Positions 1 to 17,452 of a stretch of 64,000 bases of DNA are shown here, in pieces. The notes beneath the pieces are model-generated. The model ran no database searches. It was given only the letters and a program-made list of their open reading frames with translations, and was not told the DNA's origin. The DNA lies in IMG/VR virus record IMGVR_UViG_3300037467_001303, positions 1 through 64,000 of that record. One strand, given 5' to 3'. Source of the DNA: a virus. The position numbers and the translations under genes were made by a program. Position 1 is the first letter of the stretch. The number at the start of each line of letters is the position of its first letter.

Positions 1-1
1 C

Positions 2-3000
2 GAAGCGCTGCTCGACGAGCAGGCGCACCACCCGGAGCGCAAGGACAGCAACACCGTAGCCGGCAATCGCATCTTCTCGTTCAAGTTCCACACCTCGATC
101 CCGGTCTCGCAGGAGGCCCTGGACCAGTTCGTCCCGCTCAAGGGTGACGCGCTGAAAGCGCGCACCGCCAAGGTCGAGAAACAGTGGGAAGAGGAGCGTG
201 CCCGCCAGCAGGCCGAGAAGGACAACTTCCCGACCAGGGGTTTTGAACACGTCATCAAGCCGGAATCGTCCGACGTGCAGCTGCAGCTGGCGACCGCCAA
301 GGGCTGGGGCTTTACGGAGAAGACGGTGCCGGTCCGCTATCCGGGCAGCATCGACACCGTGTTCCACGACTACGAGCGCGGTCTGGAATACGACAATGGC
401 AAGCCCAGCAGCACCAAGGATTCGGTGAAATTCGAGGTGCGGGTGGCGCAAGGTCCGAACGGCAACTGGACCTACTCGACCGCGTACAACGTGGGGAACA
501 GTGGCGGCGCGAGCAGCGCACCGAGCATCTGGGACCCGCAGTATGCCACGCGCGAACAGGCCATCACCGCCGGCAAGGACGAGCTGCTCGACCGCATGAA
601 AGACCGCCCGGACGTGGTCAAGAAGATCGAGCGGGAGTACGCCAAGCTGGGCATCAGCGGCGAAGCGAAGGCGATCGCGCCCACCGGCGACTGGCCGTGG
701 AAGGATTCGCCGTTCGCGGCGCGCATCGACGCCGCGCTGGCCAAGCTGGCCGCGCACGCCCCGGACTACCTGCGGGCGTACCGCAGCGGCTTCGTGCAGG
801 ACGCCAACGCCAACCGCCTGACCGAGGAATCGGTGGCGTTCCGCGAGAAGAAGGTCGACCAGATCGTCGGCGAGAAGACCGGCAAGGCAACTGCCGTGCC
901 GTTCACGCCGCTCGACGCGGCCGGCATGCAGAAGGTCAGCGACGTGTCCGACGCCCTGCCCAAGGAAATCGTCGACGCCGCGATCGCCAGGTGGAACCCG
1001 GTCGCCGAGCAGCTGGCGCAACTGGGCTACCAGCACGGCGAGGTGTTTACCAACGCGCCGCAGGCCGCGCAGGCCCTGGAACGCCAGCTGAAGGACATCG
1101 CCAACGCCCTGATGAGCCTGGCGCCGCGCCGCTGGCTGGTCGAGCGCGACAAGAAGCTGGACCCGCCGAAGACGGAAAAGGAAGCCAAGCGCCGCGCCGC
1201 CACCCTGCGCCACCTGGAGCGCGCCGAGGACTACGCGACCGAAGTGCTGGGCATCAAGACCCGCGATTACCCGGCCGTCGACACCGCGAACCGGATCACG
1301 CTGGCGGCCGGTATCCGCAAGAAGGCCGGCGAACTGGAGTCGAGCGACGAGGAGATCGCGGCATCGGCCGCCCCGGCCATGCAGCCGAAGGGCACCTGGC
1401 AGGAATCCGCCTTCGCCAAGCGCATCGAGACCATGATCGGGCAGCTGCGCGGCGTCGGCAACGACGACATGGCGCGCGTGGTCGAGGACGACATGAAGAC
1501 GGCCGCCGGGCGCGGCCTGCTCGACGAGGCCGAGGTCAAGCGCAAGGAAGAACTCACGCGCAACATCCTCGCCAAGGTGGCGCCAAAGCCCGGCCAGTCG
1601 ATGGTCGTGACGAAGGGCAAGGACGGCCACCCGCAGGTGGATTTCTGGCGGATCGAGTTCAAGGGCGTCGTCCACGCCGATGTCGACCTGCCGGCGCCGC
1701 TGGTGGCGCGCGTGCAGAACGTGCTGCGCACCCGCCCGGACGCCTACCACCTGAGCCGCCCTTACCGCCAGAACGATACCCGCATCCACCTCGGCCAGGA
1801 AGACGACCGCAACGCCAACAGCCAGGCCTCGATGCTGCTGCTGGACAACGGCACCGTGGAAATGCTGGGCGACGATTCCCACCACTGGGGTTCGACCATG
1901 ACCCAGGCCAGCGCGGTCAAGGCGCTGAACAACTGGCTGAACAGCCTGCCGGAGCTGGACCACAACCCGAGGAATCTGCCGAACGGCATGTGGGGCACGG
2001 TCGAGAACCCGCTGAAATTCGTCTCCGGCATGAGCCGGCCGGGCGACTACAGCAAGTTGTTCGAAGGCCACCGCAGCGTCGGCGTGATGGTCTCCGAGCT
2101 GTCCAACAGGGATGTCGACAAGGCCCTGGCCGAGCAGATGGCCAAGTCGAACGGCTACCTGTTCGTCGATTCGGGCGCGTTCCCGATCTATAAACTGAAC
2201 GAGCGCGCGTTCGCCAAGGCGCTGGAAAAGGGTTTTGAGGATTTTAAAGGCGAACAGATCCTGACGTTCGACCAGATCCTGGAGCGCTACGAGCGCCTGG
2301 ACCGGGCGATTTCGGAAGCCTCCGATGGCGAAGCCAACGACCGCGCCTTCTTCGTGATGCCCGACATCGTCGGCCGGCAGGAGGAATCGCTGCGCCTGGT
2401 CGGCGAGTATGCCCGCACGATCAAGCAGTACGGCGACCGCGCCATCATCCCGCTGCAGTCGGGCAAGTTGAGCCTGACCCAGGCCTACGAGTCGGCCATG
2501 CTGGAGCTGGCGCGCGACCCGGACCTGGATGACGGCCCGGTCATCGGCATCCCGAGCGCGGCCGAAGCGGTCTCGAACGAGGAACTGACGGCCCTGCTGA
2601 AAAAGCACGGCGACCGCATCGCCGGCGTGCACGTGCTGGGGGCATACTCCGACCTGCGCCTGGCGCCGCGCCTGAAAGCGATCCGTGACGCCGGCTACGA
2701 GGGCAACGTCTCGGCCGACGCCAACCGCCTGCGCGCGCTGATGTATGGCGACCGCACCCGCGGCCAGGCCTGGGAGGAACTGTTCAACCAGTCGCAGCCC
2801 GAGGGCGGGCGCGTCGACACGACCGAGCAGCGCAAGGAAGAGGCCAGCAAGCTGGTGCTCGCCCGCTGGGGTTTTACCCAGGACACCGTCCCGGCCAACG
2901 GCGAGTTCGGCGACTGGGAAGTGGCGGTTCGCAAGGACAACGGCCGCTTCGGCAAGGAGCAGCTCGCATTCGAGATCAACGTCGCACAGGCGCCGAACGG

Positions 3001-6000
3001 CAAGTGGGCGTATTCGGCCAGCTATAGCCAAGGCGGCACGACCGGCAACAAGATCGGCATGGGTACGCCCGGCGCCGCGCCGAAACTGGCCTCGCCGGCC
3101 TACGCCACCCGGATGCAGGCGATCGAGGCGGGTTCCGAGGCGATCCGCACCGACATGCTGAAAACCCACGGCGACATCACCCGCCTGGCCGCGCCGCTGC
3201 ACAACGCCGTCAAGCGACTCAAGGAGGCCGAGCAGGAAGCGGCCAAGCCGGCGAAGGCCGACAGGCGCGTCGTGAAAGGCTTTGCGACCATGGAGCAGGA
3301 GGCCGCGCGCCTCAAGCAGCTGCAGGAGATCGTGCGCTACCAAGCCATGCCGACCGCCGGCCTGACCTCCGAGCAGAGGAAGACCATCACGCGCGGCATC
3401 AGCGGCGCGCAGAAGGCGCTGGGCCAGCTGCCGGCCGGCCGCCTGACGCTGGCTGGCGCACGCGACCTGCGCGGAGTCGCCGATCCCTTGAACAGCAAGC
3501 TGTTCAAGGACTGGGTCGAGAACATCCGCATCCGCATCGAGGAAAAGACCCCGGCCGACCTGCACGCCGTCTATGCCAACTACCGCCACGACCGCAACGG
3601 CGAGCAGCCGCTGACGAAGGAATTTGTCGCGCAGATGCTGGCCGAGCAGGTCGGCAAGACGGAGCGCCCGCTGGCCGAACCGGGCTGGCTCGGCACGCTG
3701 AACGACGACCAGGTCGAGGACGTGCGGGACGCCATGCAGGACCTGCGCGAGCAATCGAACACGTTGCTGCGCGAGTACGAACGGCTGGCGCCGGTGGATG
3801 GCATCGCCCCGCAGGGCGGCGCCTACGTCGACGCGCTGGCGCGCGGGCAGGCCCTGGCCACCCTGCTCCAGCGCGTGGCGCAAGGCGACACCGTGAGCGA
3901 GGCCAAGATCCGCGCCAAGCTGTTCGGCAGCCAGATCCTGGGCAACGCCGCCCACACGGACAACCCGATCCATCGCAGCGCCGAGCCGCTCAACCGCTTC
4001 ATCGACGAGGCCGGCGCGAAGATCATCGAGGCCAGCGAGATCGACGCCCAGATCAAGGCGAGAACGGATGCAGCGAAAACGAAACCCGCGCCGTTCACCG
4101 AAGCGCCGGTCCGCAACTACACGGTGGAGCGCGCCGCAGCCAACAGCGTGAAGCTGCGCCCATTGCCGGGACAGAGTTTCAGCCAGGAGGACATCGCGGC
4201 GCTGCAGTCCTGGTTGAAGGAGAACGGCTGGAGTGCGTTCTCGGAGAAGAACTACGTGCATGGCATCGGACCGACCGGCGCCGCATGGAGCGACGTGCCG
4301 GACGCAGACCGCGTGACCAAAAAGGACGCCGCGGCACAGGCCGCCAGCGACAAACGCGATGCCGAGCGCAAGGCTGCCGAGGAAAGCCGGGCGGCCGATC
4401 TCGCGCGCCTCGGATCGGCCGCTTGGATCGACCAGGTCTTCGGCACCGATAGCATGAACGGCTTCAACAAGGCGGCGTTGGCGCGCTACCTGGATGGTGA
4501 GGCGGCGCAGTTCGCAGGCTTGATGAACCACAAGTGGGAAGCCGGGCTGCGCACGCTCGGCTTGCAGGAAGCCGATCTCGCAAACGGACGGGTCGACGAC
4601 ATCTTGCAGAAGGTGAAGCGTGCTTACGACCAGGCGAAAACCGCCCCGCGACTCAACCCGGAAACCAAGCCCGCACCGCGCCAGATCACCGACGACGAGC
4701 TGTTCGACGCCGATTTCCAGGACGCACTCGGCCACCTGGGCGACGTGCTGGGCGACGTGTTCGGCGGCAAGCTGAACATCACCGGCCAGAAGTACACCGC
4801 AGGTGATTTGCTGCCGGCGCTGTCCAGGGTCATCGAAATGCTGGTGAAGAAGGGCGTGCGCTCGTTCTCGAAGGCCGTCGCCACCGCCGCGCGCGGCATG
4901 CGCGCCAACGACAAGACCGCGCCGTTTGTCGACCAGATCAGCCCGCGCCAGTGGAAGGCCGCCTACAACGCGATCGCCGAAATGCACGAGGGCACCGACA
5001 CCGAGGCGGCCGTCAACGCCGTCTCGAACGACGAGGTGGCGCGCCTGGTGGCGCCGCCGGCGCCGGTGACGGCCGAGGGCATCGACATGCTCGGCAAGCG
5101 GATCGGCGAGATCGAGGCACGCCTGTCGACGCTCAGGACGCTGCGCGAGCGGGCCGAATCGACCGGCAACGCCTGGGTCTACGACGAGAAGATCGCCGAG
5201 CACGAGAAGGAGCTGCAGGAATTCCGTGACGCCCGCGAGCGCGCCATGCTGGCGCAGGGCAAGGCCGAACCGGCCAAGGACGAAGCGCCCGCCGCGCCGG
5301 CCAAGGAAAAGCCGAAGAAACCTGGCAAGGTGTATGGACAGGCCAAGTTGCGCCTGGACTACGGTGTGCCGGCGATCGACGGCTACACGGAAACGAAGGA
5401 ATTCCCGCACGGTCCGCCCGGCGACATCCCGAGCGGCGGCGTCAAGGACGCGTTCCTGAAGGATGCCCAGCGCTACCTGAAGGACGTGACCGGCATGCTG
5501 CTGGACGCCGGTTTTACCAATGCCGAGCACTTTGGCAAGGCGATCAAGCCGGTCAGCGTGAACCGCGCCGGCCCGGCCGCCGGCGGCGACGCCTACCTGA
5601 CGATGTTCCACGAGCAGGCCCAGCGCGGCATCTACATCCACGTCGGCACCGGCGGTTTCGGCGGGGTCAGCGGCTCCAAGTCCGGCATCAGCCTGATGAT
5701 GCGCGTGACCGAGGCGAAAGACCCGTTCGGCGGCGGCGAGAACCTGTGGATGCCGGCCGACCTCACCGCGGCCGCGCTGGCCGAGCGCGCACGCAAAGCC
5801 GTGTTCGCCGCCAGCCCGAACCGCGATACACTCAACGCTACGGACACGCAGGAGAAGGGCCATGGACAGGACGACGCTGGCGATGATGGCACGCAAGCAC
5901 TGGGAGGAGTACCTGCCGGAGAAAACGGCGGAACTGAAAGCGCAGGGGATGCTGGCCTCGGCGATCCAGGTCGCCGCCCGGCAGGCGCAGGACGAGATCC

Positions 6001-9000
6001 AGGCCTTGATGGCGCAGGGGTATCAGGAGCACGAGGCGGCCGAGGTGGTGCTGCCGCAACTGATCCTGCTGCCGCCGGAGCCGGATCTGGACAGCGAGGA
6101 GGCAAGGGACGCGGCCGAAGCGGAAAGGCAGTACCAGGACATGATGCGGGAAGCACCGGAGCGCCCGGACGAGTAAGCCCGGCGCCGGCCAACGTTCCGG
6201 CCGTCAATTTCCGCATCAACCCGGACCTGCGCCTCGGGCAGGGCAGCGAGACCGTCAAGTTCAACGACAACCTCGACGCCATCCGCACGCTGAAACAGGT
6301 CGAGCGTGATAACCGCCGCGCCACGCCGGAAGAACAGGCGATCCTGGCGAGATACGTCGGCTGGGGCGGCCTGAAAAACGCCTTCCCCGACCCGCTGACC
6401 GGCCAGTTCAAGCCGGAGTGGGCTGCGCGCGGCGAGGAGCTGGCCAGCCTGCTGACCGACAAGGAACACGCCGCCGCCAGCCGTTCGACGCTGGACGCGC
6501 ACTACACCTCGGAAAAGGTGGTGCAGGCGATGTGGAAGGCGGCCGAGCACCTGGGCTTCAAGGGTGGCATCACCCTCGAATCGTCGATGGGCGTCGGCAA
6601 CTTCTTCGGCCTGGTGCCGGAACACCTGGCCCCGCAGACCAAGTTCGTCGGCGTCGAATACGATGCCATCACGGCCCGCATCGCGGCCCTGCTGTACCCG
6701 CGCGAGACCGTGCTGCACTCGGGTTTCCAGAAGGTGCCGCTGCCGGACGCCTCGTTTGATCTCGCCATCGGCAACCCGCCGTTCGGCAGCCAGTCGCTGA
6801 CGTTCCAGTTCAAGCCCGAGCTGAACGGCCTGTCGATCCACAACCAGTTCTTCCTCGGCGCGATCGAGGCCGTCAAACCCGGCGGCCTGCAGATCCAGGT
6901 CGTCTCGCGCTACCTGATGGATGCCGTGGACCCGGGCGCGCGCCAGCGCCTGGCCCAGCGCGCGCGCCTGCTGGGCGCAATCCGCCTGCCGGACTCGGCG
7001 TTCCGCGAGAACGCCCGCACCGATGTCGTGACCGACATCGTGTTCCTGCAGCGCCTGACCCCGTCCGAGGAAGTGACGATGACGGCCGCGCTGGAAGCGG
7101 CGCGCTCGAAGCCGGAAAAGAACCACCAGAAGGAAATGGAGCGGCGCGAGCTGGCCGCCATGGTGCCGGAATGGGTCCAGACCGGCAAGGTCAAGGACCC
7201 GGCCGGCGGCGAAGACATGGTCGTGAACCAGTATTACGTCACGCACCCGTCGATGGTGATGGGCGATCTTGGCCGCACCGGCAAGATGCACGGCCGCGAA
7301 GAGGTCAACGTCACGCTGCCCAAGGGCGCCGACCTGGCGGGCATGCTGGACGAGGCGATCGGCCGCCTGCCGAAAGGCGTCATGAGCGCCGAGGTCGACC
7401 CGATCGAGGAAATGCTGGCCGCGCACCAGGCGATGAGCGATTCGCTCAGGATCGCGCTGGCCGGGCACGAGGCCGGTTCGATCACGATCGACCAGGACGG
7501 CAAGCTGCAGCAGATCATCGAGCGCGAGACCGCGCGCGGCGACTACGAGCTGGCCCGGCGCGAGCTGACCCCGCAGGCGCCGTGGTCGCCGTCGCTCCTG
7601 CTGGACAACCGCGGCCGCTGGTACAGGGTCGAGGCGGTCAAGGACGCCAACGGCAAGGCGGTCAAGAAGACCGTCATGTTCGATGGCAAGGAGGTCCCGA
7701 CCAAGCAGAACCTGTACGAGCGCCGCTATTTCAATAGCGAAGCCGAGGTGCCGGCCACCCTGCAGCTGGGGCAGGCCCGCTTCAACCGCCTGACCCAGAT
7801 GGTCAAGCTGCGCGACCTGCTGGTCAAGCAGCTGAACCTGGAAGCGGCCGACGCCGCGCCGAAGGAGATCGAGGCCAACCGCAAGGCGCTGCGCGCCGCC
7901 TACGACGCGTTTGTCGCCGAACACGGTTTCATCAGCGAGCCGAACAACTCGGGCCTGGTCGCCAACATGCCCGACGGCGCGCTGGTGCAGGCGCTCGAAG
8001 TCGGCTACCGCCCGGCACTGTCCAAGGCCAAGGCCGACAAGATCAACGAGCAGCCGCGCCCGGCGAAAGCCAAGCCGGCGCCGATCCTGTCGGCGCGCGT
8101 CATCAACAAGTACATCCCGCCGACCCAGGCCGCCAGCGCCGCCGATGCCCTGGCCATCACGATGGCCGAGCGCGGCCGCGCCGACATGGCGCGCATCGCC
8201 GAGCTGCTGGGCAAGCCGGAAGACGAGGTGCGCACGGAACTGCTGAACGCCGACAAGCCGCTGGTGTTCGAGGACCCGGAAAGCGGCATCGTGGTGCCGG
8301 CCGACGAATACCTGTCGGGCGAGGTGCGCCGCAAGCTGGCCGCCGCCAAGGCCGCCAACATGGACAAGAACGTGGCCGCGCTGGAAGCGGTCCAGCCCGA
8401 GGCCTGGGGCGCCGAGAACGTCACGGTGCTGCTCGGCTCGACCTGGGTGCCGCCGCAGGTGTACGCCGAGTTCGTCAAGCACATCACCGGCGCCGACGCC
8501 CGCGTCTCGTTCTCGAAAGTGACCAATGCCTATTCGGTGTCGACCGGCCAGGCCGTGCGTGCCAACGAGGAACAGTGGGGATCGGACGGCATCACGGCGG
8601 CCGGCATCATCAACGAGCTGCTGAACAGCCGCTCGATCCGCCTGACCTACATGGACTCGAACGGCAACTCGCACTTCGACGAGGAGCGCACCAAGCTGGC
8701 GCTGCTCAAAGCGCGCGCGATCCGAAACGAGTTCAACGACTGGGTGTTCGGCGACGGCGAGCGCCGCCGCCAGCTGGTGGATCTGTTCAACGATAAGTTC
8801 AACGTGCGCGTGAACCGCCAGCACGACGGCTCGCACCTGGTGTTGCCGGGCAAGGTGCCGGATGCCGTCATCAACATGCGGCGCCACCAGAAGAACGCGA
8901 TCTGGCGCGGCATCAGCGAACGCTTCATGCTGCTCGACCACGCGGTCGGCGCCGGCAAGACCTATACCGCGATCGCGCGCGCGATGGAGCGCCGCCGCAT

Positions 9001-12000
9001 GGGCCTGTCCAGGAAGCCCATGATCGTGGTGCCGAACCACATGGTCGAGCAGTTCACGAACGACGCCTATAAACTGTATCCGGGCGCCAAGGTGCTCGCG
9101 GCCGGCAAGAAGGACTTCGAGAAGTCGCGCCGTAGAAAACTGTTCGCCAAGATCGCCACCGGCGACTACGACCTCGTGATCGTGCCGCACTCGTCGTTCT
9201 TCTACATCGGGATTTCCCCGGAGACCGAGGAACGCTACCTGCAGCGCGAGCTGGACGCGGCGCTGGAAGCGGTCGCCGAAGCCGAGGAACAGGCCAAGGA
9301 AGACGGCCTGGACAACGGCCGCAGGAAACCGTTCGGCGTCAAGGAGGCCGAGCGCCTGGTCGACTCGATCACCGCGCGCATGGAGAAGGTGCGCGGCGCC
9401 GCCAGGAAGGACCGCCTGCTGACCTTCGAGCAGATGGGCGTGGACGACATGACCGTGGACGAGGCCCACGAATTCAAGAACCTCTTCTACAGCTCGCGCC
9501 TGACGAACGTCAAGGGCATGGGCAACAAGACGGGTAGCCAGAAGGCGTTCGACCTGTACAACAAGGTGCGCGTGCTGGCCGAGTCGCCCACCGGGACCGT
9601 GACCTTCATGACCGGCACGCCGATCAGCAACTCGGCCGCCGAGATGTACACGATGATGCGCTACCTGGCGGCCGATAAACTGCGCGAGTTCGGGCTGGAG
9701 CACTTCGATGCCTGGCGCGCCCAGTTCGTCTCGACCGACGCCGGCTGGGAGCCGAACGAGACCGGGCGCCTGGTGGAAGTGAACCGCCTGGGCCGCACCT
9801 GGTCGAACATGCGGTCCCTGATGGACCTGTACTACTCGTTCACCGACGCGGTCGACAACGACGACATCAAGCGCGCCTATGCCGAGGACAACCCCGGCAA
9901 GCAGTTCCCTGTGCCGGAAGTGGAAGGGGGCGGGCGCGAGTCCGTGATCGTGCAGCCGACCCCGGCCCAGATCGCGCTGCTGGAACAGACGATCGCCGAC
10001 TTCGACAGCCTGCCGTACATCCAGGACCCGTACGAGCGCAACAAGGCGCGCCTGCGCCTGATGGATCGCGCCCGGAAAGTTTCGCTGGACGTGCGCGCGG
10101 TCGACCCGATGAATACGTCGGACGAGAAAGACGGCAAGCTGGAGGTGCTGTCCGACCGCGTGCTGGAGCATTATAAAAAGTGGGACAAGGAGAAGGGCAC
10201 CCAGCTGATCTTCCTGGACCGCTCGGTGCCGAGGGGCAAGGGCGACGACAAGGTGCTGAAGGCCTACGACGCCCTGCTGAAGGACCAGGCCGAAGCGTTG
10301 CGCGAGGGCGACGAGGCGAAGCTGCGCGCGATCTCGGAGAGCCTGGAAGCGTACGATGCGAACGCGATGGAGGAAATGCGCAATGCGCAGCGCGGCGGCT
10401 GGAACGCCTACCAGCAGATCAAGGACAACCTGATCGCGCGTGGCATCCCGGCCTCCGAGATCCGCTTCGTGCAGGAAGCCGAGACCGACGAGGCCAAGCA
10501 GGCCCTGTTCGACGCCGTCAACGATGGCGAAGTGCGGGTGCTGATCGGCTCGACCCAGCGCATGGGCGCCGGCACGAACGTCCAGCAGCGCCTGGTGGCG
10601 CTGCACCACGCGGATGTGACCTGGAAGCCGTCCGACATCGAGCAGCGAGAGGGCCGCATCATCCGCCAGGGCAACCTGATCGGTTTTGATGAAAACGGCA
10701 ACGTGCGCCGCCCCGGCTTCAAGGTGGCGATCCTGGCGTATGCCACCGAGCGCACGATCGACGCCAAGATGTGGAACCTGAACGCATCGAAGCTGCGCAC
10801 CATCAATGGCATCCGCAAGTACGACGGCGCGTTCTCGATGGACTTCGCCGACGAGGAATCGGTCAGCATGGCCGAACTGGCGGCGCTCGCCTCGGGCGAC
10901 CCGCTGCTCCTGGAGCGGGTCCAGCTGGCGTCCGACATCGACAACCTGGAACTGCTGCAGCGCCAGCACGCGCGCCGCGAGTGGGGCATCATCAGCCAGG
11001 TCGAGGACGCCGAGCGCACGATCGCGCGCCATCCGAAGCGCATCGAGGCCCTGCAGCAGGACGCCCAGCTGATCGACGACGGCCGCGACCAGCTGGCCGA
11101 GCAGGTCGCCAAGCGCAGCGTCGAGATGGAGGGCGCCACCTACACCAGCTACGACGAGGCCACGCGCGCCCTGAAGGAGCTGGTCCTGCAGCAGCAGGCC
11201 GGCGACGAGGACGCGAAGATCTCGGTCAAGATCGGCAGCAAGCGCTACCAGGCCATCAACACGGCGATGGACGCGCTGCACGCCGGCTTCGGCGACCAGC
11301 TGCCGTTCCAGGCCAGGATCGACGGCCAGGACTACATCACCCGCACCGACGCCGCCCGCGAGCTGGCCGAAATGGCCAGCGACATGATGGCCGGCCTGAA
11401 AAAGGGCCAGTCGGATTCGCGCGTGGTCGGCACGATGCTGGGCCTGAAGGTGGAGCTGACGGTCGAGAAGCCGGACGGCTTCAAGAAGGAAACCACGTTC
11501 GCCACCGTGAGCCTGAATCGCCCGGACGGCTCGACCCTGGTGCACGGCTCGACCTCGACGGACGAACTGAAATTCGCCACCAACGGCCTGCGCAATGCGC
11601 TGTCCGACCTGGACAGCAGGGCCGACGCCCCCGCCCTGCGCGGCAGCGCCCGCTATTACCAGGAGCAGCTGAACCAGGCCAGGGAAAACCTGCCGGGGCT
11701 GCAGGCCAAGCGCGGCCAGCCGTTCCCGCAGCAGGAAGAACTCGACACCAAGATGGCGCGGCTGGAAGAAGTGATCCGCGAGCTGGCCAACGGCACCAGC
11801 GACACGCGCCGGGCCGCGGCGATGCAGTTCAACCTGGTGCCGTCGCCGGCGGAAATCGCCGTGCGCCAGCAGCGCCGCGAGGACGACCGCCATCGCCGGC
11901 GCGACGACAAGCTGCCGGACGACGAGGATGGACAGGCCCGGTTCTCGCGCGGCGGGCGTGGCGCCGGCATGGCGCGCGACAAGGCCGAGCAGGCCGCGCG

Positions 12001-15000
12001 CCGCATCATGCAGGGCTGGCGCGCCGCCCCGGACCTGGCGGTGGTCGAGACGGTCGACCAGCTGCCGTTCGAGGCACCGGGCGACACGCACGGCGTCTAC
12101 CTCGACGGCAAGGTGTGGATCGTGGCCGGCAACCTGGCCGACGAACGCCAGCTCGAATTCGTGCTGGCGCACGAGGCGCTGGGCCACCACGGCCTGCGCG
12201 TCATCATGGCCGAGGACGAAATCACGCGGGAAATGAACCGCCTGCGCCTGATCAACCCCGAGCTGGCGAAAGCGGCGCGCGAGAAGGTCGAGCGCTATGA
12301 GAACCAGATCGACCTGGCCACCGCGACCGAGGAAGCGCTGGCCGACCTGGCGGCGGACGGCCGCCCGATCCGCGGCTGGGACAAGTTCGTGGCCAAGGTG
12401 CAGGCCGCCCTGCGCGCCGTGGGCCTGGGCCGGATCGCCGACTGGATGGAGGAACGTACCCAGGCGGAAACGATGGCCCTGATCGGCCGCGCCCGTGCGG
12501 CGGTCGTCAACGGCCGCAGCGCGCGCCCGTTCGGCGAGATCCAGGCCGCGCGCTTCTCGGACGGCCAGAAGCCGCGCTGGTACTCGCAGCTGGCGCGTGC
12601 GATCGAGCGCCTGCCGCAGAAATCGGCTACCGCCCTGCAGTGGGCCGAGACCATCATGGGCAGCGGGTTCGCCCAGAAGGGCGTCAAGCAGGACGAGATC
12701 TACTGGACCGGCGTGCTGGACTGGCTGAACCTGCAGGGGTCCGCCAACAAGGTCAGCAAGGCCGCGCTGCTGGATTACCTGGCCGCCAATGGCGTGCGCG
12801 TCACGGAAACGGTGCACGAGGATGCGCCGACGCCGACCCCGGAAGGGCTGGCCAAGCGCCAAGCGGTGTTCGAGAAGTACAACGAACGGATCGGCGCACT
12901 GGTCAACCGCATGCTGGACCCCGACCTCACGTTCGCGCAGCACGAGGCCGCCGAGGCCGAGTACGACGAGCTGCTGGCCGCGCGCAACATCGAGGCGGAT
13001 CTCGCCTACCGCCTGCCGGCGGACACCGTTCCGCAGCCGAAGTACGACACCTACACGCTGCCGGGCGGGGATAACTACCGCGAACTGCTGCTGACCCTGC
13101 CCGAGCGCGAACCGTCGTTCAGGCTGGACGACTACATCGGCGAGCTGAGCGACAAGTACGGCTGGGAGGTCGAGGGCAACATGCGCAGGCCCGGCTGGAC
13201 CGAGGCCGACCTGACCGCCGACGAACGCACCCAGCTGGCCAGGCTGCAGGCCGACGAGGCGCTGGAGCGCCAGCAGCGCGCCCGCCGCACCTTCCAGTCG
13301 AGCCACTGGGGCGAGAAAAACGTGCTTGCCCACATCCGCTTCAATGACCGGATCGACGCCGAGGGCAACCGCGTGCTCCACGTGGAGGAACTGCAAAGCG
13401 ACTGGGGCCAGGTCGGCAAGCGCGAAGGCTTCATCGGCACCACCCAGGAGGACGCGAAGGCGTTCTTCGGCATCAGCGACGAGGACTGGGCGCGCCTCGA
13501 CAACCAGGATCGGGAAAGCTACCGGCAGGAAATGCTGGACGCGAAGGATGCCGTCCCGGCCGCGCCGTTCGTCGGCAAGACCGATGCGTGGCTGAACCTG
13601 GCCCTGAAACGCGTGCTGACCTATGCGGCCGAGAACGGCTATGACCGGGTCTCGTTCGTCACCGGCCAGCAGGCGGTCGACCGCTTCCAGCTGTCGGCGG
13701 AGGTCGACCGGATCGACTACTGGACCCGCAGCGGCCAGACCATGATCGCCATCTTCCCGAAGGGAGAGGACACGGCGGTCAACCTGGTGGTGGTCGATGG
13801 CGTGGTCGGCAAGGCGGTGCACACCCCGGAGGAATTCGTCGGCCAGCGCCTGGACCGCGTGCTGGGCAAGGAAATGGCCGACCGCATCCTCGACGACCCG
13901 AACGACGGCTCGATCGAGGGCGAGAACCTGGTGCTGGGCGGGGACGGGATGCGCACGTTCTATGACAGGATCGTGCCGAACGCCGTCAATGGCCTGCTCA
14001 AGCAGGTCGGCGGCAGCCGCGTCGGCACGGTCGAGATCGAGAACGGCACCCCGGGCTACCGCCGCACCGACGAGAGCGGCGACTACCTGGCGCAACCCGG
14101 CTTCGACATCACCGACGCCATGCGCGAGAAGCTGGCCGGCGGCATGCCGCTGTTCAAGCGCGACGGCGCCCGCCTGGCGCCCAACGGTCGCCCGTCGAAG
14201 CTGTCCGAGCGCCAGTGGGAGCAGGTGCGCACGCCCGAGTTCAAGGCCTGGTTCGGCGACTGGGAAAACAACCCGGCGGCCGCCTCGAAGGTGGTCGACG
14301 AGAACGGCGAGCCGCGCGTGGTGTTCCACGGCACCCACGCCGACGTGGCCGCCTTCGACAAGTCCAAGATCCGCTCGCCTGGCGGATTCTGGTTCTCCGA
14401 CCGGCGCGACTACATCGACAACGTCTCGCGCGAGGACCAGCCGGGCTTCAACCAGATGCCGGTGTTCCTGAACATCAGGAAGCCGCTCGATGCCGGCCGC
14501 TACGCGCTGGCCCGCAAGGACATGGGCCAGTTCGACAACACTGGCGTCCAGCGCAATCTGAAACTGATGGGCGGCGACGGCGTGCGCCTGGACAACGGCC
14601 GCGATTCGACCTGGATCGCGCTGGAGCCGGGGCAGATCAAGAGCGCGGTGTCCAACGCCGGCACCTATGACCGTGGCAACGCCGACATCCGGTTCTCGCG
14701 CGGCGAGCTGCCGGAACTGAGCGACCCGGGCAGCCTGCGCCTGATGCGCGCCACCCCGCAGCAGATGGCGAATGCGGCCGCGCGCAGCGTCAAAGCCGTT
14801 ACCTGGACCCGCACCGGCAACACGCTGGCGCACATGCGCAGCCTGGGCCTGCAGTTCCTGGGCCGCCTGCAGCTGACCGACGTGTACGGCAAGCTGTTCC
14901 CGCAGCAGCAGGGCGGCGACAACCTGATGCAGGTGTACTCGGATCTCGCGGCCCTGATGGACGCCGAGAAGAACGAAGGCGGCACCAAGGCCGACGAGGT

Positions 15001-17452
15001 GGCCAAGCGCTGGGCCAAGCTGAAGGACGAGGAAGCGCTGGCCAAGCTGATGCACGATTCGACCCGCCTGGAGATCGACCCCTCGAAGCCGTTCCAGTAC
15101 GGCGACATCCGCCGCCACTACAACGACCTGAAGCAGCGCTACGACCGGCTCACGCCGCAGGCCAAGCAGGTGTACCAGGACGCGGCGCGCATGTACGCCG
15201 ACCAGCACGAGGCGGTGCGCCGGGCCGTGCACGAGCGGATCGCCCGCTCGCTGCCGGACCACCCGAACCGCGCCAGCATGATCCGCCAGCTCGAAGGCGA
15301 ATTCTTCTCGCGCCGGATCAAGGGCGTGTACTTCCCGCTGGCACGCTTCGGCGACTACGTCATCACGGTGCGCTACGTCGGCAAGAACCCGCAGCCGGGA
15401 CAGTCGGTGGTGCGCGAGGCGGTGGCGTTCGAGGAAACCCTGAACGCGGCCGAGGACCGCCGCGCCGAGCTGATCAAGCAGTATCCGCCGGAGCAGGGCT
15501 ACGAGGTGATGCCGATCGTCAAGCGCGCCGAGTACAACGCGGCCCGGGACTCCGTCTCGCGCGGGTTCCTGAAAAAGCTGTTCGGCACCCTGGACGAGGC
15601 CGGCCTGCAGGACCCGTCGCTGCTGGACGCGATCAACCAGATCTATCTGACCAGCCTGCCGGACCTGTCCTGGGCCAAGACCGGCATCCACCGCGCCGGC
15701 ATGCCGGGCTTCTCGCAGGACGCGCGCCGGGCGTTCGCGCACCACATGTTCCACGGTGCGAACTACCTGGCCAAGCTGAACTACTCGGACCAGCTGGCCG
15801 AGACGCTGGAGTCGATGCAGAAGCACGTCCTCGAGAAGAACACCGACGCCAGCTACGACCGCGTCAAGGCCCAGCAGGTGGTCGACGAAATGGTCAAGCG
15901 CCACGACGCCTACATGAACCCGAAGGCCAGCCCGCTGTCGACCAAGCTGACCGGCCTGGGCTTCCTGTTCTACCTGGGCCTGTCGCCGGCCTCGGCGATG
16001 GTCAACCTGCTGCAGACCCCGACGGTGGCGTTCCCGCTCCTGGGCGGGCGCTTCGGCTACAAGAAGGCGTCCAGCGAACTGCTGACGGCCTCGAAAGCCG
16101 TCATGCGTGGCCACAACAAGCTCGAAGGCCAGCTGACCGGCGACGAGAAGCTGGCGTACGACGAGTGGGTCCGCACCGGCCTGATCGACCTGACCATGGT
16201 GCACGACCTGGCCGGCATCGCCTCGGGGCGCGACAGCGTCTGGCGCGGCCACATGCGCGGCTACATGGAGAAGGCGGCCTGGATGTTCCACCATGCCGAG
16301 CTGTTCAACCGGCAGGCGACGGCGCTGGCCACCTACCGCCTGGCACGCCAGAGCGGCATGAACCACGAAGCGGCCTACCGCGCCTCGGTCGACATCACCA
16401 AGGCCAGCCACTTCGACTACTCGGCCGGCAACCGCCCGCGCTTCATGCAGGGGCCGATCGCGCAGGTGATCTTCCTGTTCAAGCAGTACGCGCAGAACCT
16501 GATGTATACGTTCGCGCGCAACGCCTACCTGATGACCAAGGGCGACAAGCAGGCCAGGAACGCGTTCCTGGGCCTTCTGGCCACGCACACGATGGCGGCC
16601 GGCGTGCTGGGCCTGCCGGCGGTGTCGACGCTGCTCGCCGCGGCCTCGATGCTGGGCGGCAGCGACGACGATCCGTGGGACGCCCAGGTGGCGCTGCGCC
16701 GCGCGCTGGCGGACATGTTCAGCGAGGCGTTCGGCGACGAGGTCGGCCAGAAGCTGGGCGAGGTGCTGTCGCACGGCGTCTCTCGCCTGACGCCCTGGGA
16801 TATTTCCGGGCGCGTCGGCGCCGACCACCTGATCGTGCCGGACGTGCAGGAAAGCCTGCAGGGAGCCGACGCCTACAACGCGTACCTGGCCGGCCTGCTC
16901 GGGCCGGTGGTGGGCATGGGCGCGAGCTGGGCCAAGTCGTTCGAGATGATCGTGCGCGGCGACGTGGGGCGCGGCATCGAGAACATGCTGCCGGCCTTCC
17001 TCAAGGGGCCGGTGCGCTCGATGCGCTACGCCACCGAGGGCGGCGCCAAGGACCGTAACGGCATCACGCTGGTCGAGGACATCAGCGAAGCCGAACACGC
17101 CGGTTCCTGGCTGGGCTTCTCGGCCGGGCGCGTGCGCGAGGCGCAGGAGGCCAAGAGCGCCGTGTACGCGCAGGACGTGACGCTGCAGCACCGGCGCCAG
17201 GTCCTGATGAACAAGTTCGCCGATGCCGTCATCGGGCAGGACGACGGCGACCGCGAGCAGGCGCTGGCCGCGATCATGGCGTTCAACGAGAAGCACCCGA
17301 ACCGCCTGATCGCGCCGCTGCACCTGCAGATGAGCGTGCGCAACCGGATGATGCGCCGGGCGCAGGCCAGGGATGGCCTGTACCTGCCGGGCAAGCGCGG
17401 GCTGGATGCGCGCCAGTATGGAGATTTCGCCAACGGAGAAGGAGGGGACTGA
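2..17452 (+). CDS. Giant polyvalent DarB-like virion/ejection protein (5'-truncated, >5,800 aa)
   Basis: The frame of ORF 275..17452 is open back to position 2 (EALLDEQAHHPERK...), so the true start lies upstream of the window. It contains MTase (LESSMGVGNF, NPPF), SNF2 (HAVGAGKT, DEAH, TGTP, QREGRIIRQGN), HEALGH, ART-like and PLARFG motifs, and sits just upstream of the lysis genes. Confidence 0.93.
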   Translation, partial: EALLDEQAHHPERKDSNTVAGNRIFSFKFHTSIPVSQEALDQFVPLKGDALKARTAKVEKQWEEERARQQAEKDNFPTRGFEHVIKPESSDVQLQLATAKGWGFTEKTVPVRYPGSIDTVFHDYERGLEYDNGKPSSTKDSVKFEVRVAQGPNGNWTYSTAYNVGNSGGASSAPSIWDPQYATREQAITAGKDELLDRMKDRPDVVKKIEREYAKLGISGEAKAIAPTGDWPWKDSPFAARIDAALAKLAAHAPDYLRAYRSGFVQDANANRLTEESVAFREKKVDQIVGEKTGKATAVPFTPLDAAGMQKVSDVSDALPKEIVDAAIARWNPVAEQLAQLGYQHGEVFTNAPQAAQALERQLKDIANALMSLAPRRWLVERDKKLDPPKTEKEAKRRAATLRHLERAEDYATEVLGIKTRDYPAVDTANRITLAAGIRKKAGELESSDEEIAASAAPAMQPKGTWQESAFAKRIETMIGQLRGVGNDDMARVVEDDMKTAAGRGLLDEAEVKRKEELTRNILAKVAPKPGQSMVVTKGKDGHPQVDFWRIEFKGVVHADVDLPAPLVARVQNVLRTRPDAYHLSRPYRQNDTRIHLGQEDDRNANSQASMLLLDNGTVEMLGDDSHHWGSTMTQASAVKALNNWLNSLPELDHNPRNLPNGMWGTVENPLKFVSGMSRPGDYSKLFEGHRSVGVMVSELSNRDVDKALAEQMAKSNGYLFVDSGAFPIYKLNERAFAKALEKGFEDFKGEQILTFDQILERYERLDRAISEASDGEANDRAFFVMPDIVGRQEESLRLVGEYARTIKQYGDRAIIPLQSGKLSLTQAYESAMLELARDPDLDDGPVIGIPSAAEAVSNEELTALLKKHGDRIAGVHVLGAYSDLRLAPRLKAIRDAGYEGNVSADANRLRALMYGDRTRGQAWEELFNQSQPEGGRVDTTEQRKEEASKLVLARWGFTQDTVPANGEFGDWEVAVRKDNGRFGKEQLAFEINVAQAPNGKWAYSASYSQGGTTGNKIGMGTPGAAPKLASPAYATRMQAIEAGSEAIRTDMLKTHGDITRLAAPLHNAVKRLKEAEQEAAKPAKADRRVVKGFATMEQEAARLKQLQEIVRYQAMPTAGLTSEQRKTITRGISGAQKALGQLPAGRLTLAGARDLRGVADPLNSKLFKDWVENIRIRIEEKTPADLHAVYANYRHDRNGEQPLTKEFVAQMLAEQVGKTERPLAEPGWLGTLNDDQVEDVRDAMQDLREQSNTLLREYERLAPVDGIAPQGGAYVDALARGQALATLLQRVAQGDTVSEAKIRAKLFGSQILGNAAHTDNPIHRSAEPLNRFIDEAGAKIIEASEIDAQIKARTDAAKTKPAPFTEAPVRNYTVERAAANSVKLRPLPGQSFSQEDIAALQSWLKENGWSAFSEKNYVHGIGPTGAAWSDVPDADRVTKKDAAAQAASDKRDAERKAAEESRAADLARLGSAAWIDQVFGTDSMNGFNKAALARYLDGEAAQFAGLMNHKWEAGLRTLGLQEADLANGRVDDILQKVKRAYDQAKTAPRLNPETKPAPRQITDDELFDADFQDALGHLGDVLGDVFGGKLNITGQKYTAGDLLPALSRVIEMLVKKGVRSFSKAVATAARGMRANDKTAPFVDQISPRQWKAAYNAIAEMHEGTDTEAAVNAVSNDEVARLVAPPAPVTAEGIDMLGKRIGEIEARLSTLRTLRERAESTGNAWVYDEKIAEHEKELQEFRDARERAMLAQGKAEPAKDEAPAAPAKEKPKKPGKVYGQAKLRLDYGVPAIDGYTETKEFPHGPPGDIPSGGVKDAFLKDAQRYLKDVTGMLLDAGFTNAEHFGKAIKPVSVNRAGPAAGGDAYLTMFHEQAQRGIYIHVGTGGFGGVSGSKSGISLMMRVTEAKDPFGGGENLWMPADLTAAALAERARKAVFAASPNRDTLNATDTQEKGHGQDDAGDDGTQALGGVPAGENGGTESAGDAGLGDPGRRPAGAGRDPGLDGAGVSGARGGRGGAAATDPAAAGAGSGQRGGKGRGRSGKAVPGHDAGSTGAPGRVSPAPANVPAVNFRINPDLRLGQGSETVKFNDNLDAIRTLKQVERDNRRATPEEQAILARYVGWGGLKNAFPDPLTGQFKPEWAARGEELASLLTDKEHAAASRSTLDAHYTSEKVVQAMWKAAEHLGFKGGITLESSMGVGNFFGLVPEHLAPQTKFVGVEYDAITARIAALLYPRETVLHSGFQKVPLPDASFDLAIGNPPFGSQSLTFQFKPELNGLSIHNQFFLGAIEAVKPGGLQIQVVSRYLMDAVDPGARQRLAQRARLLGAIRLPDSAFRENARTDVVTDIVFLQRLTPSEEVTMTAALEAARSKPEKNHQKEMERRELAAMVPEWVQTGKVKDPAGGEDMVVNQYYVTHPSMVMGDLGRTGKMHGREEVNVTLPKGADLAGMLDEAIGRLPKGVMSAEVDPIEEMLAAHQAMSDSLRIALAGHEAGSITIDQDGKLQQIIERETARGDYELARRELTPQAPWSPSLLLDNRGRWYRVEAVKDANGKAVKKTVMFDGKEVPTKQNLYERRYFNSEAEVPATLQLGQARFNRLTQMVKLRDLLVKQLNLEAADAAPKEIEANRKALRAAYDAFVAEHGFISEPNNSGLVANMPDGALVQALEVGYRPALSKAKADKINEQPRPAKAKPAPILSARVINKYIPPTQAASAADALAITMAERGRADMARIAELLGKPEDEVRTELLNADKPLVFEDPESGIVVPADEYLSGEVRRKLAAAKAANMDKNVAALEAVQPEAWGAENVTVLLGSTWVPPQVYAEFVKHITGADARVSFSKVTNAYSVSTGQAVRANEEQWGSDGITAAGIINELLNSRSIRLTYMDSNGNSHFDEERTKLALLKARAIRNEFNDWVFGDGERRRQLVDLFNDKFNVRVNRQHDGSHLVLPGKVPDAVINMRRHQKNAIWRGISERFMLLDHAVGAGKTYTAIARAMERRRMGLSRKPMIVVPNHMVEQFTNDAYKLYPGAKVLAAGKKDFEKSRRRKLFAKIATGDYDLVIVPHSSFFYIGISPETEERYLQRELDAALEAVAEAEEQAKEDGLDNGRRKPFGVKEAERLVDSITARMEKVRGAARKDRLLTFEQMGVDDMTVDEAHEFKNLFYSSRLTNVKGMGNKTGSQKAFDLYNKVRVLAESPTGTVTFMTGTPISNSAAEMYTMMRYLAADKLREFGLEHFDAWRAQFVSTDAGWEPNETGRLVEVNRLGRTWSNMRSLMDLYYSFTDAVDNDDIKRAYAEDNPGKQFPVPEVEGGGRESVIVQPTPAQIALLEQTIADFDSLPYIQDPYERNKARLRLMDRARKVSLDVRAVDPMNTSDEKDGKLEVLSDRVLEHYKKWDKEKGTQLIFLDRSVPRGKGDDKVLKAYDALLKDQAEALREGDEAKLRAISESLEAYDANAMEEMRNAQRGGWNAYQQIKDNLIARGIPASEIRFVQEAETDEAKQALFDAVNDGEVRVLIGSTQRMGAGTNVQQRLVALHHADVTWKPSDIEQREGRIIRQGNLIGFDENGNVRRPGFKVAILAYATERTIDAKMWNLNASKLRTINGIRKYDGAFSMDFADEESVSMAELAALASGDPLLLERVQLASDIDNLELLQRQHARREWGIISQVEDAERTIARHPKRIEALQQDAQLIDDGRDQLAEQVAKRSVEMEGATYTSYDEATRALKELVLQQQAGDEDAKISVKIGSKRYQAINTAMDALHAGFGDQLPFQARIDGQDYITRTDAARELAEMASDMMAGLKKGQSDSRVVGTMLGLKVELTVEKPDGFKKETTFATVSLNRPDGSTLVHGSTSTDELKFATNGLRNALSDLDSRADAPALRGSARYYQEQLNQARENLPGLQAKRGQPFPQQEELDTKMARLEEVIRELANGTSDTRRAAAMQFNLVPSPAEIAVRQQRREDDRHRRRDDKLPDDEDGQARFSRGGRGAGMARDKAEQAARRIMQGWRAAPDLAVVETVDQLPFEAPGDTHGVYLDGKVWIVAGNLADERQLEFVLAHEALGHHGLRVIMAEDEITREMNRLRLINPELAKAAREKVERYENQIDLATATEEALADLAADGRPIRGWDKFVAKVQAALRAVGLGRIADWMEERTQAETMALIGRARAAVVNGRSARPFGEIQAARFSDGQKPRWYSQLARAIERLPQKSATALQWAETIMGSGFAQKGVKQDEIYWTGVLDWLNLQGSANKVSKAALLDYLAANGVRVTETVHEDAPTPTPEGLAKRQAVFEKYNERIGALVNRMLDPDLTFAQHEAAEAEYDELLAARNIEADLAYRLPADTVPQPKYDTYTLPGGDNYRELLLTLPEREPSFRLDDYIGELSDKYGWEVEGNMRRPGWTEADLTADERTQLARLQADEALERQQRARRTFQSSHWGEKNVLAHIRFNDRIDAEGNRVLHVEELQSDWGQVGKREGFIGTTQEDAKAFFGISDEDWARLDNQDRESYRQEMLDAKDAVPAAPFVGKTDAWLNLALKRVLTYAAENGYDRVSFVTGQQAVDRFQLSAEVDRIDYWTRSGQTMIAIFPKGEDTAVNLVVVDGVVGKAVHTPEEFVGQRLDRVLGKEMADRILDDPNDGSIEGENLVLGGDGMRTFYDRIVPNAVNGLLKQVGGSRVGTVEIENGTPGYRRTDESGDYLAQPGFDITDAMREKLAGGMPLFKRDGARLAPNGRPSKLSERQWEQVRTPEFKAWFGDWENNPAAASKVVDENGEPRVVFHGTHADVAAFDKSKIRSPGGFWFSDRRDYIDNVSREDQPGFNQMPVFLNIRKPLDAGRYALARKDMGQFDNTGVQRNLKLMGGDGVRLDNGRDSTWIALEPGQIKSAVSNAGTYDRGNADIRFSRGELPELSDPGSLRLMRATPQQMANAAARSVKAVTWTRTGNTLAHMRSLGLQFLGRLQLTDVYGKLFPQQQGGDNLMQVYSDLAALMDAEKNEGGTKADEVAKRWAKLKDEEALAKLMHDSTRLEIDPSKPFQYGDIRRHYNDLKQRYDRLTPQAKQVYQDAARMYADQHEAVRRAVHERIARSLPDHPNRASMIRQLEGEFFSRRIKGVYFPLARFGDYVITVRYVGKNPQPGQSVVREAVAFEETLNAAEDRRAELIKQYPPEQGYEVMPIVKRAEYNAARDSVSRGFLKKLFGTLDEAGLQDPSLLDAINQIYLTSLPDLSWAKTGIHRAGMPGFSQDARRAFAHHMFHGANYLAKLNYSDQLAETLESMQKHVLEKNTDASYDRVKAQQVVDEMVKRHDAYMNPKASPLSTKLTGLGFLFYLGLSPASAMVNLLQTPTVAFPLLGGRFGYKKASSELLTASKAVMRGHNKLEGQLTGDEKLAYDEWVRTGLIDLTMVHDLAGIASGRDSVWRGHMRGYMEKAAWMFHHAELFNRQATALATYRLARQSGMNHEAAYRASVDITKASHFDYSAGNRPRFMQGPIAQVIFLFKQYAQNLMYTFARNAYLMTKGDKQARNAFLGLLATHTMAAGVLGLPAVSTLLAAASMLGGSDDDPWDAQVALRRALADMFSEAFGDEVGQKLGEVLSHGVSRLTPWDISGRVGADHLIVPDVQESLQGADAYNAYLAGLLGPVVGMGASWAKSFEMIVRGDVGRGIENMLPAFLKGPVRSMRYATEGGAKDRNGITLVEDISEAEHAGSWLGFSAGRVREAQEAKSAVYAQDVTLQHRRQVLMNKFADAVIGQDDGDREQALAAIMAFNEKHPNRLIAPLHLQMSVRNRMMRRAQARDGLYLPGKRGLDARQYGDFANGEGGD
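2010..2760 (+). other. TGT/DpdA-like guanine-transglycosylase TIM-barrel domain within the giant protein
   Basis: Ordered motifs LFVDSGAF (2168-2182 = DSGAF), VMPDIVG, IPLQSG, VIGIP, VHVLG and SADA follow the order of the TGT-family motifs. Confidence 0.75.
5804..5854 (+). promoter_or_regulatory. Candidate internal sigma70 promoter and RBS for the nested gene
   Basis: TTCGCC(5804-5809)-17 bp-TACACT(5827-5832); AGGAG at 5850-5854, 7 nt before ATG 5862. The -35 element is weak. Confidence 0.45.
5862..6176 (+). CDS. Nested, out-of-frame 104-aa helical protein (TnpV-like pattern)
   Basis: Good SD and strongly GC3-biased codons in this frame. The product looks like a natural protein, whereas the giant frame over the same bases is a Gly/Ala/Asp/Arg-rich linker using rare codons. 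Confidence 0.8.
   Translation: MDRTTLAMMARKHWEEYLPEKTAELKAQGMLASAIQVAARQAQDEIQALMAQGYQEHEAAEVVLPQLILLPPEPDLDSEEARDAAEAERQYQDMMREAPERPDE
6200..7400 (+). other. N6-adenine DNA methyltransferase domain of the giant protein
   Basis: Motif I LESSMGVGNFF, VGVEYD, motif IV IGNPPF (NPPF 6773-6784), RLPDSAF and TDIVFLQR, as in DarB-type MTases. Confidence 0.9.
7700..11000 (+). other. SNF2/SWI2-family helicase domain of the giant protein
   Basis: DHAVGAGKT (Walker A), VDEAHEFKN (Walker B), MTGTPISN, GAGTNVQ, EQREGRIIRQGN. Confidence 0.92.
11960..12520 (+). other. Zincin-like metallopeptidase (MPTase-type) domain of the giant protein
   Basis: GVYLDGKVWIV...VLAHEALGHHGL...ATEEALADLA (HExxGH plus a downstream EE). 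Confidence 0.7.
14170..14700 (+). other. ADP-ribosyltransferase-like (ART-PolyVal type) domain of the giant protein
   Basis: FKAWFGDW...VVDENGEPRVVFHGT...GFWFS...PVFLNIRKP...GDGV...QIKSA pattern. Confidence 0.7.
14800..17452 (+). other. PLxRFG / LPD-type C-terminal region of the giant protein
   Basis: YFPLARFGDY, SPASAMVNLLQ, ELFNRQAT, HFDYS..NRPRF, FLFKQY, plus hydrophobic segments. Confidence 0.7.

Follow-up and report, generated by a model that had tools for sequence, protein, structure and literature searches.

To our knowledge, dpdA is taken as the marker gene of DNA that contains 7-deazaguanine, and the known subfamilies are encoded by stand-alone genes that usually lie next to the synthesis pathway. 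Here we describe a DpdA-like domain inside a giant polyvalent protein, encoded by the mobile element of IMG/VR virus record IMGVR_UViG_3300037467_001303 (104,865 bp), of which the first 64 kb form the window, that is, the whole stretch of DNA that was analysed (64,000 nucleotides). Among the closest described systems, the phage DpdA1 enzymes (9g gp03 type; Hutinet et al. 2019, PMC6884629) are TIM barrels of about 300 aa that are missed by the Pfam model for tRNA-guanine transglycosylase (TGT). The 9g enzyme stands alone within a folE-queD-queC-queE cluster, and DpdA1 can use host-made preQ0: when E. coli is given only the 9g dpdA gene, its plasmid DNA acquires dPreQ0, and DpdA-only phages exist, mostly on hosts with the queuosine pathway (PMC6884629). 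DpdA4, which is the DUF6610 protein of Halovirus HVTV-1 (PMC10516641), comes from archaeal viruses and adjoins a preQ1 pathway. The bacterial DpdA of the Salmonella Montevideo Dpd system (PDB 7ui4, PMC10164549) is part of a host defence island; its residues D95, F99, D130, H181, L236 and D256 were assigned to the catalytic site by mutagenesis and structure, and D95 and D256 proved essential for guanine exchange by mutagenesis (PMC10164549). As for the protein that carries the domain, its closest described counterparts are DarB of phage P1 and the polyvalent proteins (Iyer et al. 2017, PMC5512222), giant multi-enzyme polypeptides with a methylase and SF2 helicase pair, ART-PolyVal, LPD39 and InPase modules, whose genes lie with late or virion genes and whose relatives lie within conjugative transfer genes.

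The domain under study lies near the left end of the window, in an open reading frame that continues beyond it:

2..17452, plus strand: window part of the giant open reading frame (frame 2, 5,816 aa, open at the 5' end, no stop)
2006..2790, plus strand: DpdA-like TIM-barrel domain (window-ORF residues ~669–930, full-length residues ~2052–2313)

A HMMER search with window 1874–2836 as query against 1.8 billion cluster representatives delimited the core of the domain to window 2006–2773 (query residues 45–300), and AlphaFold2 set the limits of the barrel at window 2012–2788. Both agree with the span of 2010–2760 for which the initial annotation, made from the letters of the window, had proposed a TGT/DpdA-like domain on the basis of six ordered motifs. 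The AlphaFold2 model, for which an alignment of 36 stand-alone relatives served as input, has a pLDDT of 91.3 and a pTM of 0.89 and consists of eight strand–helix units, that is, a (β/α)8 TIM barrel, so that the fold anticipated in that annotation is the one predicted, with Foldseek and hhalign pointing to TGT/DpdA. TIM-barrel enzymes have their active site at the C-terminal ends of the strands. In the model each of the six motifs, all of which are in frame and in the proposed order between window 2159 and 2728, lies at the C-terminal end of one strand, from strand 3 to strand 8:

2159..2182, plus strand: LFVDSGAF, strand 3; its Asp (2168–2170, window-ORF D723) corresponds to TGT D102/DpdA D95, the general acid/base
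2180–2182, plus strand: Phe of DSGAF, counterpart of Y106/F99, base stacking
2354..2371, plus strand: VMPDIV, strand 4; its Asp (conserved in 100%) pairs with LDGIGD in DpdA1 and with GDY in DpdA4
2450..2464, plus strand: PLQSG, strand 5; its Gln (2456–2458, Q819) corresponds to TGT Q203/DpdA H181
2540..2557, plus strand: VIGIPS, strand 6; position of the Gly-rich loop (TGT G229/G230, DpdA G206/G207)
2627..2641, plus strand: VHVLG, strand 7; His at 2630–2632, Leu corresponding to DpdA L236
2708..2728, plus strand: VSADANR, strand 8; its Asp (2717–2719, D906) corresponds to the nucleophile, TGT D280/DpdA D256

Conservation was read from an alignment of 144 family members, in which the three Asp residues are kept in 99–100%, Phe/Tyr in 97%, Gln/His in 94% and the HxLG residues in 99–100%. 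Within DSGAF, the Asp is found in 99% and the aromatic position is Phe in 88% and Tyr in 9% of the members; LFVDSGAF as a whole aligns with FLDSGAF of the phage 9g DpdA family and with TDSGGF of E. coli-type TGT. The Gln column of PLQSG (Q 90%, H 4%) is aligned to the conserved His of DpdA1 and DpdA4. VIGIPS (G 83%, P 99%) was placed from strand order and hhalign. The counterpart of the HxLG motif (H and G 100%, L 99%) is HLLGG in DpdA4 and VHGFG in DpdA1, and VSADANR (D 99%, R 93%) pairs with VSIDGN in DpdA4. The acid/base Asp, the base-binding Asp, the Gln, HxLG and the nucleophile Asp appear in the strand order expected for the TGT family in both the AlphaFold2 model and the hhalign alignments, and the motif correspondence first put forward on sight of the translation holds. 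Counterparts of all six bacterial DpdA residues D95, F99, D130, H181, L236 and D256 are present in the domain (residue roles from PMC10164549), and we consider it likely that the active site is intact.

The profile comparisons point in the same direction. With hhalign, the 144-sequence family profile matched the phage 9g DpdA1 family with a probability of 91.6% (E 8.4e-7; 140 columns, covering strands 3–7), pairing FVDSGAF with FLDSGAF, PDvvGD with LDGIGD, and Gln with His, and matched the DpdA4/DUF6610 (Halovirus HVTV-1 gp69) family with a probability of 86.6% (E 4.5e-6; 128 columns, strands 4–8), pairing HxLG with HLLGG and SaDaN with VSIDgN. The scores against the two subfamilies are 51.7 and 48.9, whereas controls with reversed targets and 30 column-shuffled ones reached a probability of at most 1.2% and a score of at most 21. 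Neither DpdA1 nor DpdA4 picks up the other under these settings. Against a low-diversity alignment of E. coli-type TGT the family profile reached 8.6% over 25 columns, at the DSG-Phe motif only; DpdA1 (2.7%) and DpdA4 (1.1%) also fail to match this target, so that the low value does not count as a negative. Since DpdA1 and DpdA4 miss each other and both miss E. coli-type TGT, the domain family bridges the two. Three of 37 stand-alone relatives weakly match PF20314 (DUF6610) at E=0.0026, below significance for membership, which provides a lead to DpdA4; the nearest named ESM-Atlas cluster (score 0.92), with PF23859 DpdA in 17% of its members, is likewise a lead only.

Structure searches are less selective. 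In a Foldseek search of the PDB, Z. mobilis TGT accounts for almost every one of the ~50 matches listed (E ~1e-5, TM 0.5/0.4); a sugar epimerase scores about as well, and generic TIM barrels follow close behind the TGT-family structures. In a structure comparison against 48,161 chains, TGT-family chains took ranks 1, 2, 5, 6 and 16. BFVD is headed, at E 1.7e-13, by a phage protein named 'ART-PolyVal-like domain-containing protein', itself a family member, and most of the named matches that follow, down to E ~1e-2, are phage queuine/queuosine tRNA-ribosyltransferases, i.e. DpdAs. We regard homology of the domain to the DpdA branch of the TGT superfamily as very probable.

Within that branch we read the domain, from its sequence, as a new zinc-less DpdA-like subfamily that forms a clade of its own, apart from the DpdA subfamilies with a known product. 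With DpdA1 it shares a TIM barrel that escapes the Pfam TGT model, a near-identical (F/L)DSGAF motif, an equivalent base-binding Asp and an acidic isoelectric point (pI; median 5.7 for DpdA1 and 5.6 for the domain family), domain charge and pI being indicators that do not discriminate between substrates. It differs from DpdA1 in having Gln where the latter has His, in lacking the conserved Cys and His of DpdA1, and in being embedded in a protein of 7,199 aa. DpdA4/DUF6610 has no conserved Cys in the alignment made here and so is zinc-less too, but the N-terminal halves of the two do not align and the window domain has no PF20314 match. With bacterial DpdA the family shares, next to the six active-site counterparts, a link to DpdC, a relative of which (DUF6884, see below) is fused to family members; unlike that enzyme, the domain is carried by a mobile element, where its role is likely one of counter-defence. 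As an observation on the DpdA4 side, some DpdA4/DUF6610 proteins among the HVTV-1 gp69 relatives (P0164–P0168) are fused to GNAT acetyltransferase domains, echoing a GNAT and TGT pairing reported for a BREX-related system (PMC12839542).

In the HMMER search, 298 cluster representatives (50% identity) reached E<=1e-3, and 110 of them E<=1e-10. When the domain was excised from 143 representatives, about half of the proteins proved to be 1,000–7,200 aa in size and about one third were stand-alone proteins of less than 500 aa. The domain recurs in polyvalent giants of phages and of conjugative plasmids. By tblastn it was found in 42 PLSDB plasmid records, and no match was obtained at E<=1e-3 in 50,697 GenBank phage records; conjugative plasmids thus carry the domain family no less often than phages do. 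On a Cupriavidus gilardii plasmid the domain is part of a 2,174-aa LPD1 polyvalent protein amid transfer genes, while plasmids of Pseudomonas and Shewanella carry it as a short gene of its own, surrounded by small genes, one of them for a cytosine methylase, together with a large helicase. The stand-alone gene is also carried by pHN39-SIM.

Two fused partners stand out. DUF6884 directly adjoins the barrel in 4 of 150 representatives (P0063, P0053, P0022 and P0006), at its C-terminal side in three and its N-terminal side in one, and on Cupriavidus basilensis pRK1-3 (L008:7785–9533) the domain is likewise fused to it. DUF6884, in which we note the motifs CxxxK and LSAxxG, was related by Pfam curators to YaaA/PF03883 and predicted to be a DNA base flipper (PMC11701544), and DpdC, the enzyme by which dPreQ0 in DNA is turned into dADG, belongs to PF03883 (PMC12839542). 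Because DUF6884 is related to the DpdC family, its fusion to the barrel provides independent contextual support for a role of the domain in placing 7-deazaguanine in DNA. The second partner is InPase (PF18823), a polyvalent-type pyrophosphatase domain, present in 27 of 150 representatives (P0064, P0071, P0055, P0073, P0040 and others) and directly adjacent to the barrel (gap <=65 aa) in about 10 of the 27, including two-domain proteins of 500–630 aa.

The protein that carries the window domain extends beyond the window. When record bases 94751–98898 and 1–17452 are joined across the junction, the full giant gene encodes 7,199 aa; its nearest database representative, P0002, has 7,235 aa and a domain identity of 96%. 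The other modules recognised in it are as follows:

6743..7183, plus strand: N6-adenine methyltransferase-like region (Pfam N6_Mtase E=0.013, below the curated cut-off; Eco57I E=0.054)
8870..10672, plus strand: SF2/SNF2-type helicase (ResIII, SNF2-related, Helicase_C; Pfam scores near the cut-offs)
14297–14665, plus strand: ART-PolyVal, a hallmark polyvalent module (Pfam E=3.3e-19)
14813–15337, plus strand: LPD39, a hallmark polyvalent module (Pfam E=1.1e-28)
record 96494–96898: InPase (PF18823), near the N-terminus of the giant protein (E 1e-55)

With InPase, helicase, ART-PolyVal and LPD39 in one polypeptide that is encoded with virion genes, the giant is a polyvalent protein. It may also have the DarB-type pair of an EcoKI/TaqI-type adenine methylase N-terminal to an SF2/SNF2 helicase, the putative methylase region (E=0.013 only) having its NPPF motif in the right position. 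The initial annotation had placed a DNA methylase and a helicase in the same polypeptide as the barrel. The helicase is borne out: its region has blastn matches to a 'helicase-related protein' and to a 'DarB-like antirestriction protein' of Burkholderia phage JC1. The methylase is weak, with an NPPFG motif at 6773–6787, no sequence match in the PDB, and, further downstream (window 8300–8355), a short stretch that blastn aligns with a gene annotated as N-6 DNA methylase. Searches of plasmids and phages with the giant gene by megablast gave short fragments only, and a search for related loci with a single protein gave three close IMG/VR relatives only. That the domain is new to described polyvalent repertoires, as had been surmised, is in keeping with what we found: the Iyer survey (PMC5512222) makes no mention, in its main text, of a TGT/DpdA-like module, none of the Pfam LPD models match the domain, and our literature search found no paper describing such a module in polyvalent proteins.

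Several features bear on whether the giant protein travels with the virion. Its gene starts 4 nt past the preceding ORF and is the last of an uninterrupted same-strand block that opens with structural genes (portal, capsid, head-closure). Its 7,199 aa contain no cysteine, where about 64 would be expected from the average of 0.89% in 21 other ORFs of the record (P ~1e-28); such a Cys-free sequence may be a circumstantial sign of passage, unfolded, through a portal or tail channel, or through an oxidising compartment or the periplasm. From gene position, DarB-like content and the zero Cys count, we consider delivery of the giant protein with the virion rather more probable than its absence from the particle. 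Just upstream of the giant gene, record 87354–89675 and 89686–91818 encode adjacent large paralogues that both match phrog_10969 (unknown function, E ~1e-80).

The element itself is more than a phage. The record encodes an SU10-type portal, a major head protein, a head-closure protein and further virion proteins, and also the following:

window 27000–28022 and 31984–33700: TrfA replication initiator and ParA/ParB pair

Because portal and capsid genes co-occur with TrfA, ParA and ParB, the element is a phage-plasmid. The window ParB was considered as a DpdB-like partner and set aside, as it sits with ParA in a partition locus. Record bases 1–5276 recur at 98899–104174 with 99.9% identity, leaving a unique length of about 98.9 kb; since the first 5,276 bases recur near the record end, the record is a circularly permuted assembly, which IMG/VR labels as linear and for which CheckV gives a completeness of 100%. 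After the 99.9% stretch the two end copies (window 1–5436 and record 98899–104865) differ by about 530 bp and then match again at 96.6%, and their comparison indicates a length variant inside the giant gene. Elsewhere, the SU10-type portal (1,049 aa, record 71058–74207) has a C-terminal extension (aa 923–1000) that matches tape-measure and endolysin PHROG segments, and a 239-aa ORF on the minus strand (window 19993–20712) has an N-terminal YAcAr (SLOG-family) domain (Pfam E=1.7e-18).

The best explanation for these findings, which we favour with moderate confidence, is that the domain would be an intact DpdA-branch enzyme module that exchanges guanine for host-derived 7-deazaguanine in the double-stranded DNA of the element. 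Catalysis on such a substrate, the identity of the base, delivery with the virion and an effect on restriction are what we infer, and the mechanism is drawn by analogy with TGT and DpdA. A guanine would first flip into the pocket that opens on the C-terminal side of the barrel, where it would stack on the DSGAF Phe and be read by the strand-4 Asp and the strand-5 Gln. The strand-8 Asp would then displace the base to give a covalent enzyme–sugar intermediate, and the DSGAF Asp would act first as general acid and then as base while a free 7-deazaguanine, probably preQ0 from the host queuosine pathway, takes the place of guanine. The favoured substrate would be the element's own double-stranded DNA, either before packaging or straight after entry, and the methylase and SNF2 translocase elsewhere in the giant protein may act alongside, so that two chemistries would blunt host restriction. 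As a separate matter, whether DNA is indeed the substrate and a host-derived 7-deazaguanine the inserted base we judge to be evenly balanced.

The source of the base was a concern from the outset, when it was stated that folE, queD, queE and queC are missing from the window. For folE, queD and queC this holds for the whole record: models for QueC, QueD/PTPS, GTP cyclohydrolase I (folE), DUF6884, TGT and DpdA find no match in its 104.9 kb, in a search that did not include QueE. Because the record is without preQ0 synthesis genes, any inserted base would come from the host.

A number of points weigh against guanine exchange in DNA. The record contains no preQ0 genes, no DpdC and no DUF6884. No match to Pfam TGT PF01702 (searched in six frames), DpdA PF23859 or DUF6610 PF20314 is found over the whole record, and PADLOC models of defence-system proteins match none of 37 family members; indeed no curated model (Pfam, PADLOC, PHROGs, NCBIfam, PDB sequences) recognises the domain, for which Pfam (TGT PF01702 at E<=10), PHROGs, NCBIfam and PDB sequences yielded a single, insignificant line (TrbJ, E=0.16), and a 37-sequence family profile found nothing in the PDB. 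The structural zinc site, a Cys/His cluster after strand 8 in the relatives that have it, is absent: there is no Cys in the domain or in the giant protein and no conserved Cys in the family. That the Asp residues would share one pocket is predicted from barrel topology only. The frequent fusion to InPase is not explained by DNA base exchange. Bacterial DpdA requires the ATPase DpdB, and no dedicated DpdB partner was identified for the domain. Unlike the domain, bacterial DpdA has a zinc site, and its chain counts 413 residues against the 260 of the domain; its insertions Ins1 and Ins8 have been proposed to hold the DNA (PMC10164549).

The alternative that survives best is that of an active TGT-like barrel with a substrate other than DNA, such as a nucleotide or nucleotide-like signal or a nucleobase attached to protein (cf. 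the 7-deazaguanine-tagged CBASS enzymes handled by Cap10), in which case the domain would be an injected counter-defence or metabolic effector. The InPase domains, present in 27 of 150 representatives and adjacent in about 10, speak for it, and polyvalent InPase domains are argued by Iyer et al. (PMC5512222) to process nucleotide-like substrates. However, the significant profile matches are to DpdA1 and DpdA4, which act on DNA, the predicted base flipper DUF6884 with its relation to DpdC is fused adjacent to the barrel in four architectures, the residues for guanine recognition and the nucleophile are all kept, and DNA-directed methylase and helicase modules share the polypeptide. Cap10 of type IV CBASS (PDB 9ntn; Wassarman et al. 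2025 preprint, PMC11996544) differs in that it binds a protein-linked base and belongs to a host defence operon, and no sequence-level link between it and the domain was found with PADLOC. We hold a non-DNA substrate to be unlikely.

Improbable, in our view, is a glycosylase-type removal of guanine, or of a modified or damaged purine, from phage or host DNA, or the insertion of a different base. Such an activity would fit a record in which no 7-deazaguanine synthesis genes were found, a family that forms a clade apart from every DpdA subfamily with a known product, and the link of DUF6884 to abasic and RNA-base lesions (PMC11701544). Yet the double-displacement set of acid/base Asp and nucleophile Asp is conserved together with the guanine-edge readers Asp and Gln/His, and phages that have DpdA only, like 9g DpdA when placed in E. 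coli, are documented to draw on host preQ0 (PMC6884629).

Action on host tRNA had been raised as the alternative in the initial annotation; it would be that of a canonical TGT, with exchange at G34 or G15 perturbing or hijacking translation. TGT structures do top the Foldseek list, and the DSG-Phe motif does align with E. coli-type TGT. The Pfam TGT model has no match, however, and the hhalign match to E. coli-type TGT amounts to 8.6% over 25 columns (against the low-diversity target that DpdA1 and DpdA4 fail to match as well); moreover, the domain has neither the zinc subdomain nor the C-terminal parts that bind tRNA, the nearest profiles belong to DpdAs specific for DNA, and the modules fused to it are DNA enzymes, which together render this a distinctly improbable reading. 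That the barrel only looks like TGT and serves as a non-catalytic scaffold or binding module, for which the lack of any curated HMM match could be cited, is scarcely credible given that the polar residues at the C-terminal ends of strands 3–8 are kept in 99–100% of representatives that are <=50% identical, in many architectures as well as in stand-alone form.

Returning to guanine exchange by a DpdA-like barrel, the original interpretation of such a barrel within a polyvalent giant is supported in part, and is corrected in three respects: the element is a phage-plasmid, the zinc site is absent, and the family is plasmid-borne at least as often as phage-borne. Tentatively, and short of an even call, we extend it to a sixth DpdA subfamily, minimal and zinc-free, that would be built into polyvalent proteins destined for injection or translocation, or stand by itself as a small gene of the leading region, and would write host-derived 7-deazaguanine into incoming DNA. 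Its carriers would then be many phages and conjugative plasmids, among them megaplasmids of Pseudomonas and plasmids of Shewanella and Cupriavidus. Where, as in some lineages, a DpdC-like domain is fused to the barrel, it would convert the base to its mature form, and a fused pyrophosphatase would play some role.

A subfamily that curated models miss would widen the range of places where 7-deazaguanine modification of DNA is to be expected, to giant injected or translocated proteins and to conjugative plasmids without synthesis genes. By bridging DpdA1 and DpdA4 the family helps to classify the superfamily, and its recurrent fusions to DUF6884 and to the pyrophosphatase are testable leads on these two domains. 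The finding also raises the question whether DNA, on entering a cell, is rewritten with the recipient's own preQ0 pool. If true, plasmids, and not only phages that carry que genes, would commonly rely on 7-deazaguanine in their DNA against restriction, a strategy that has been overlooked.

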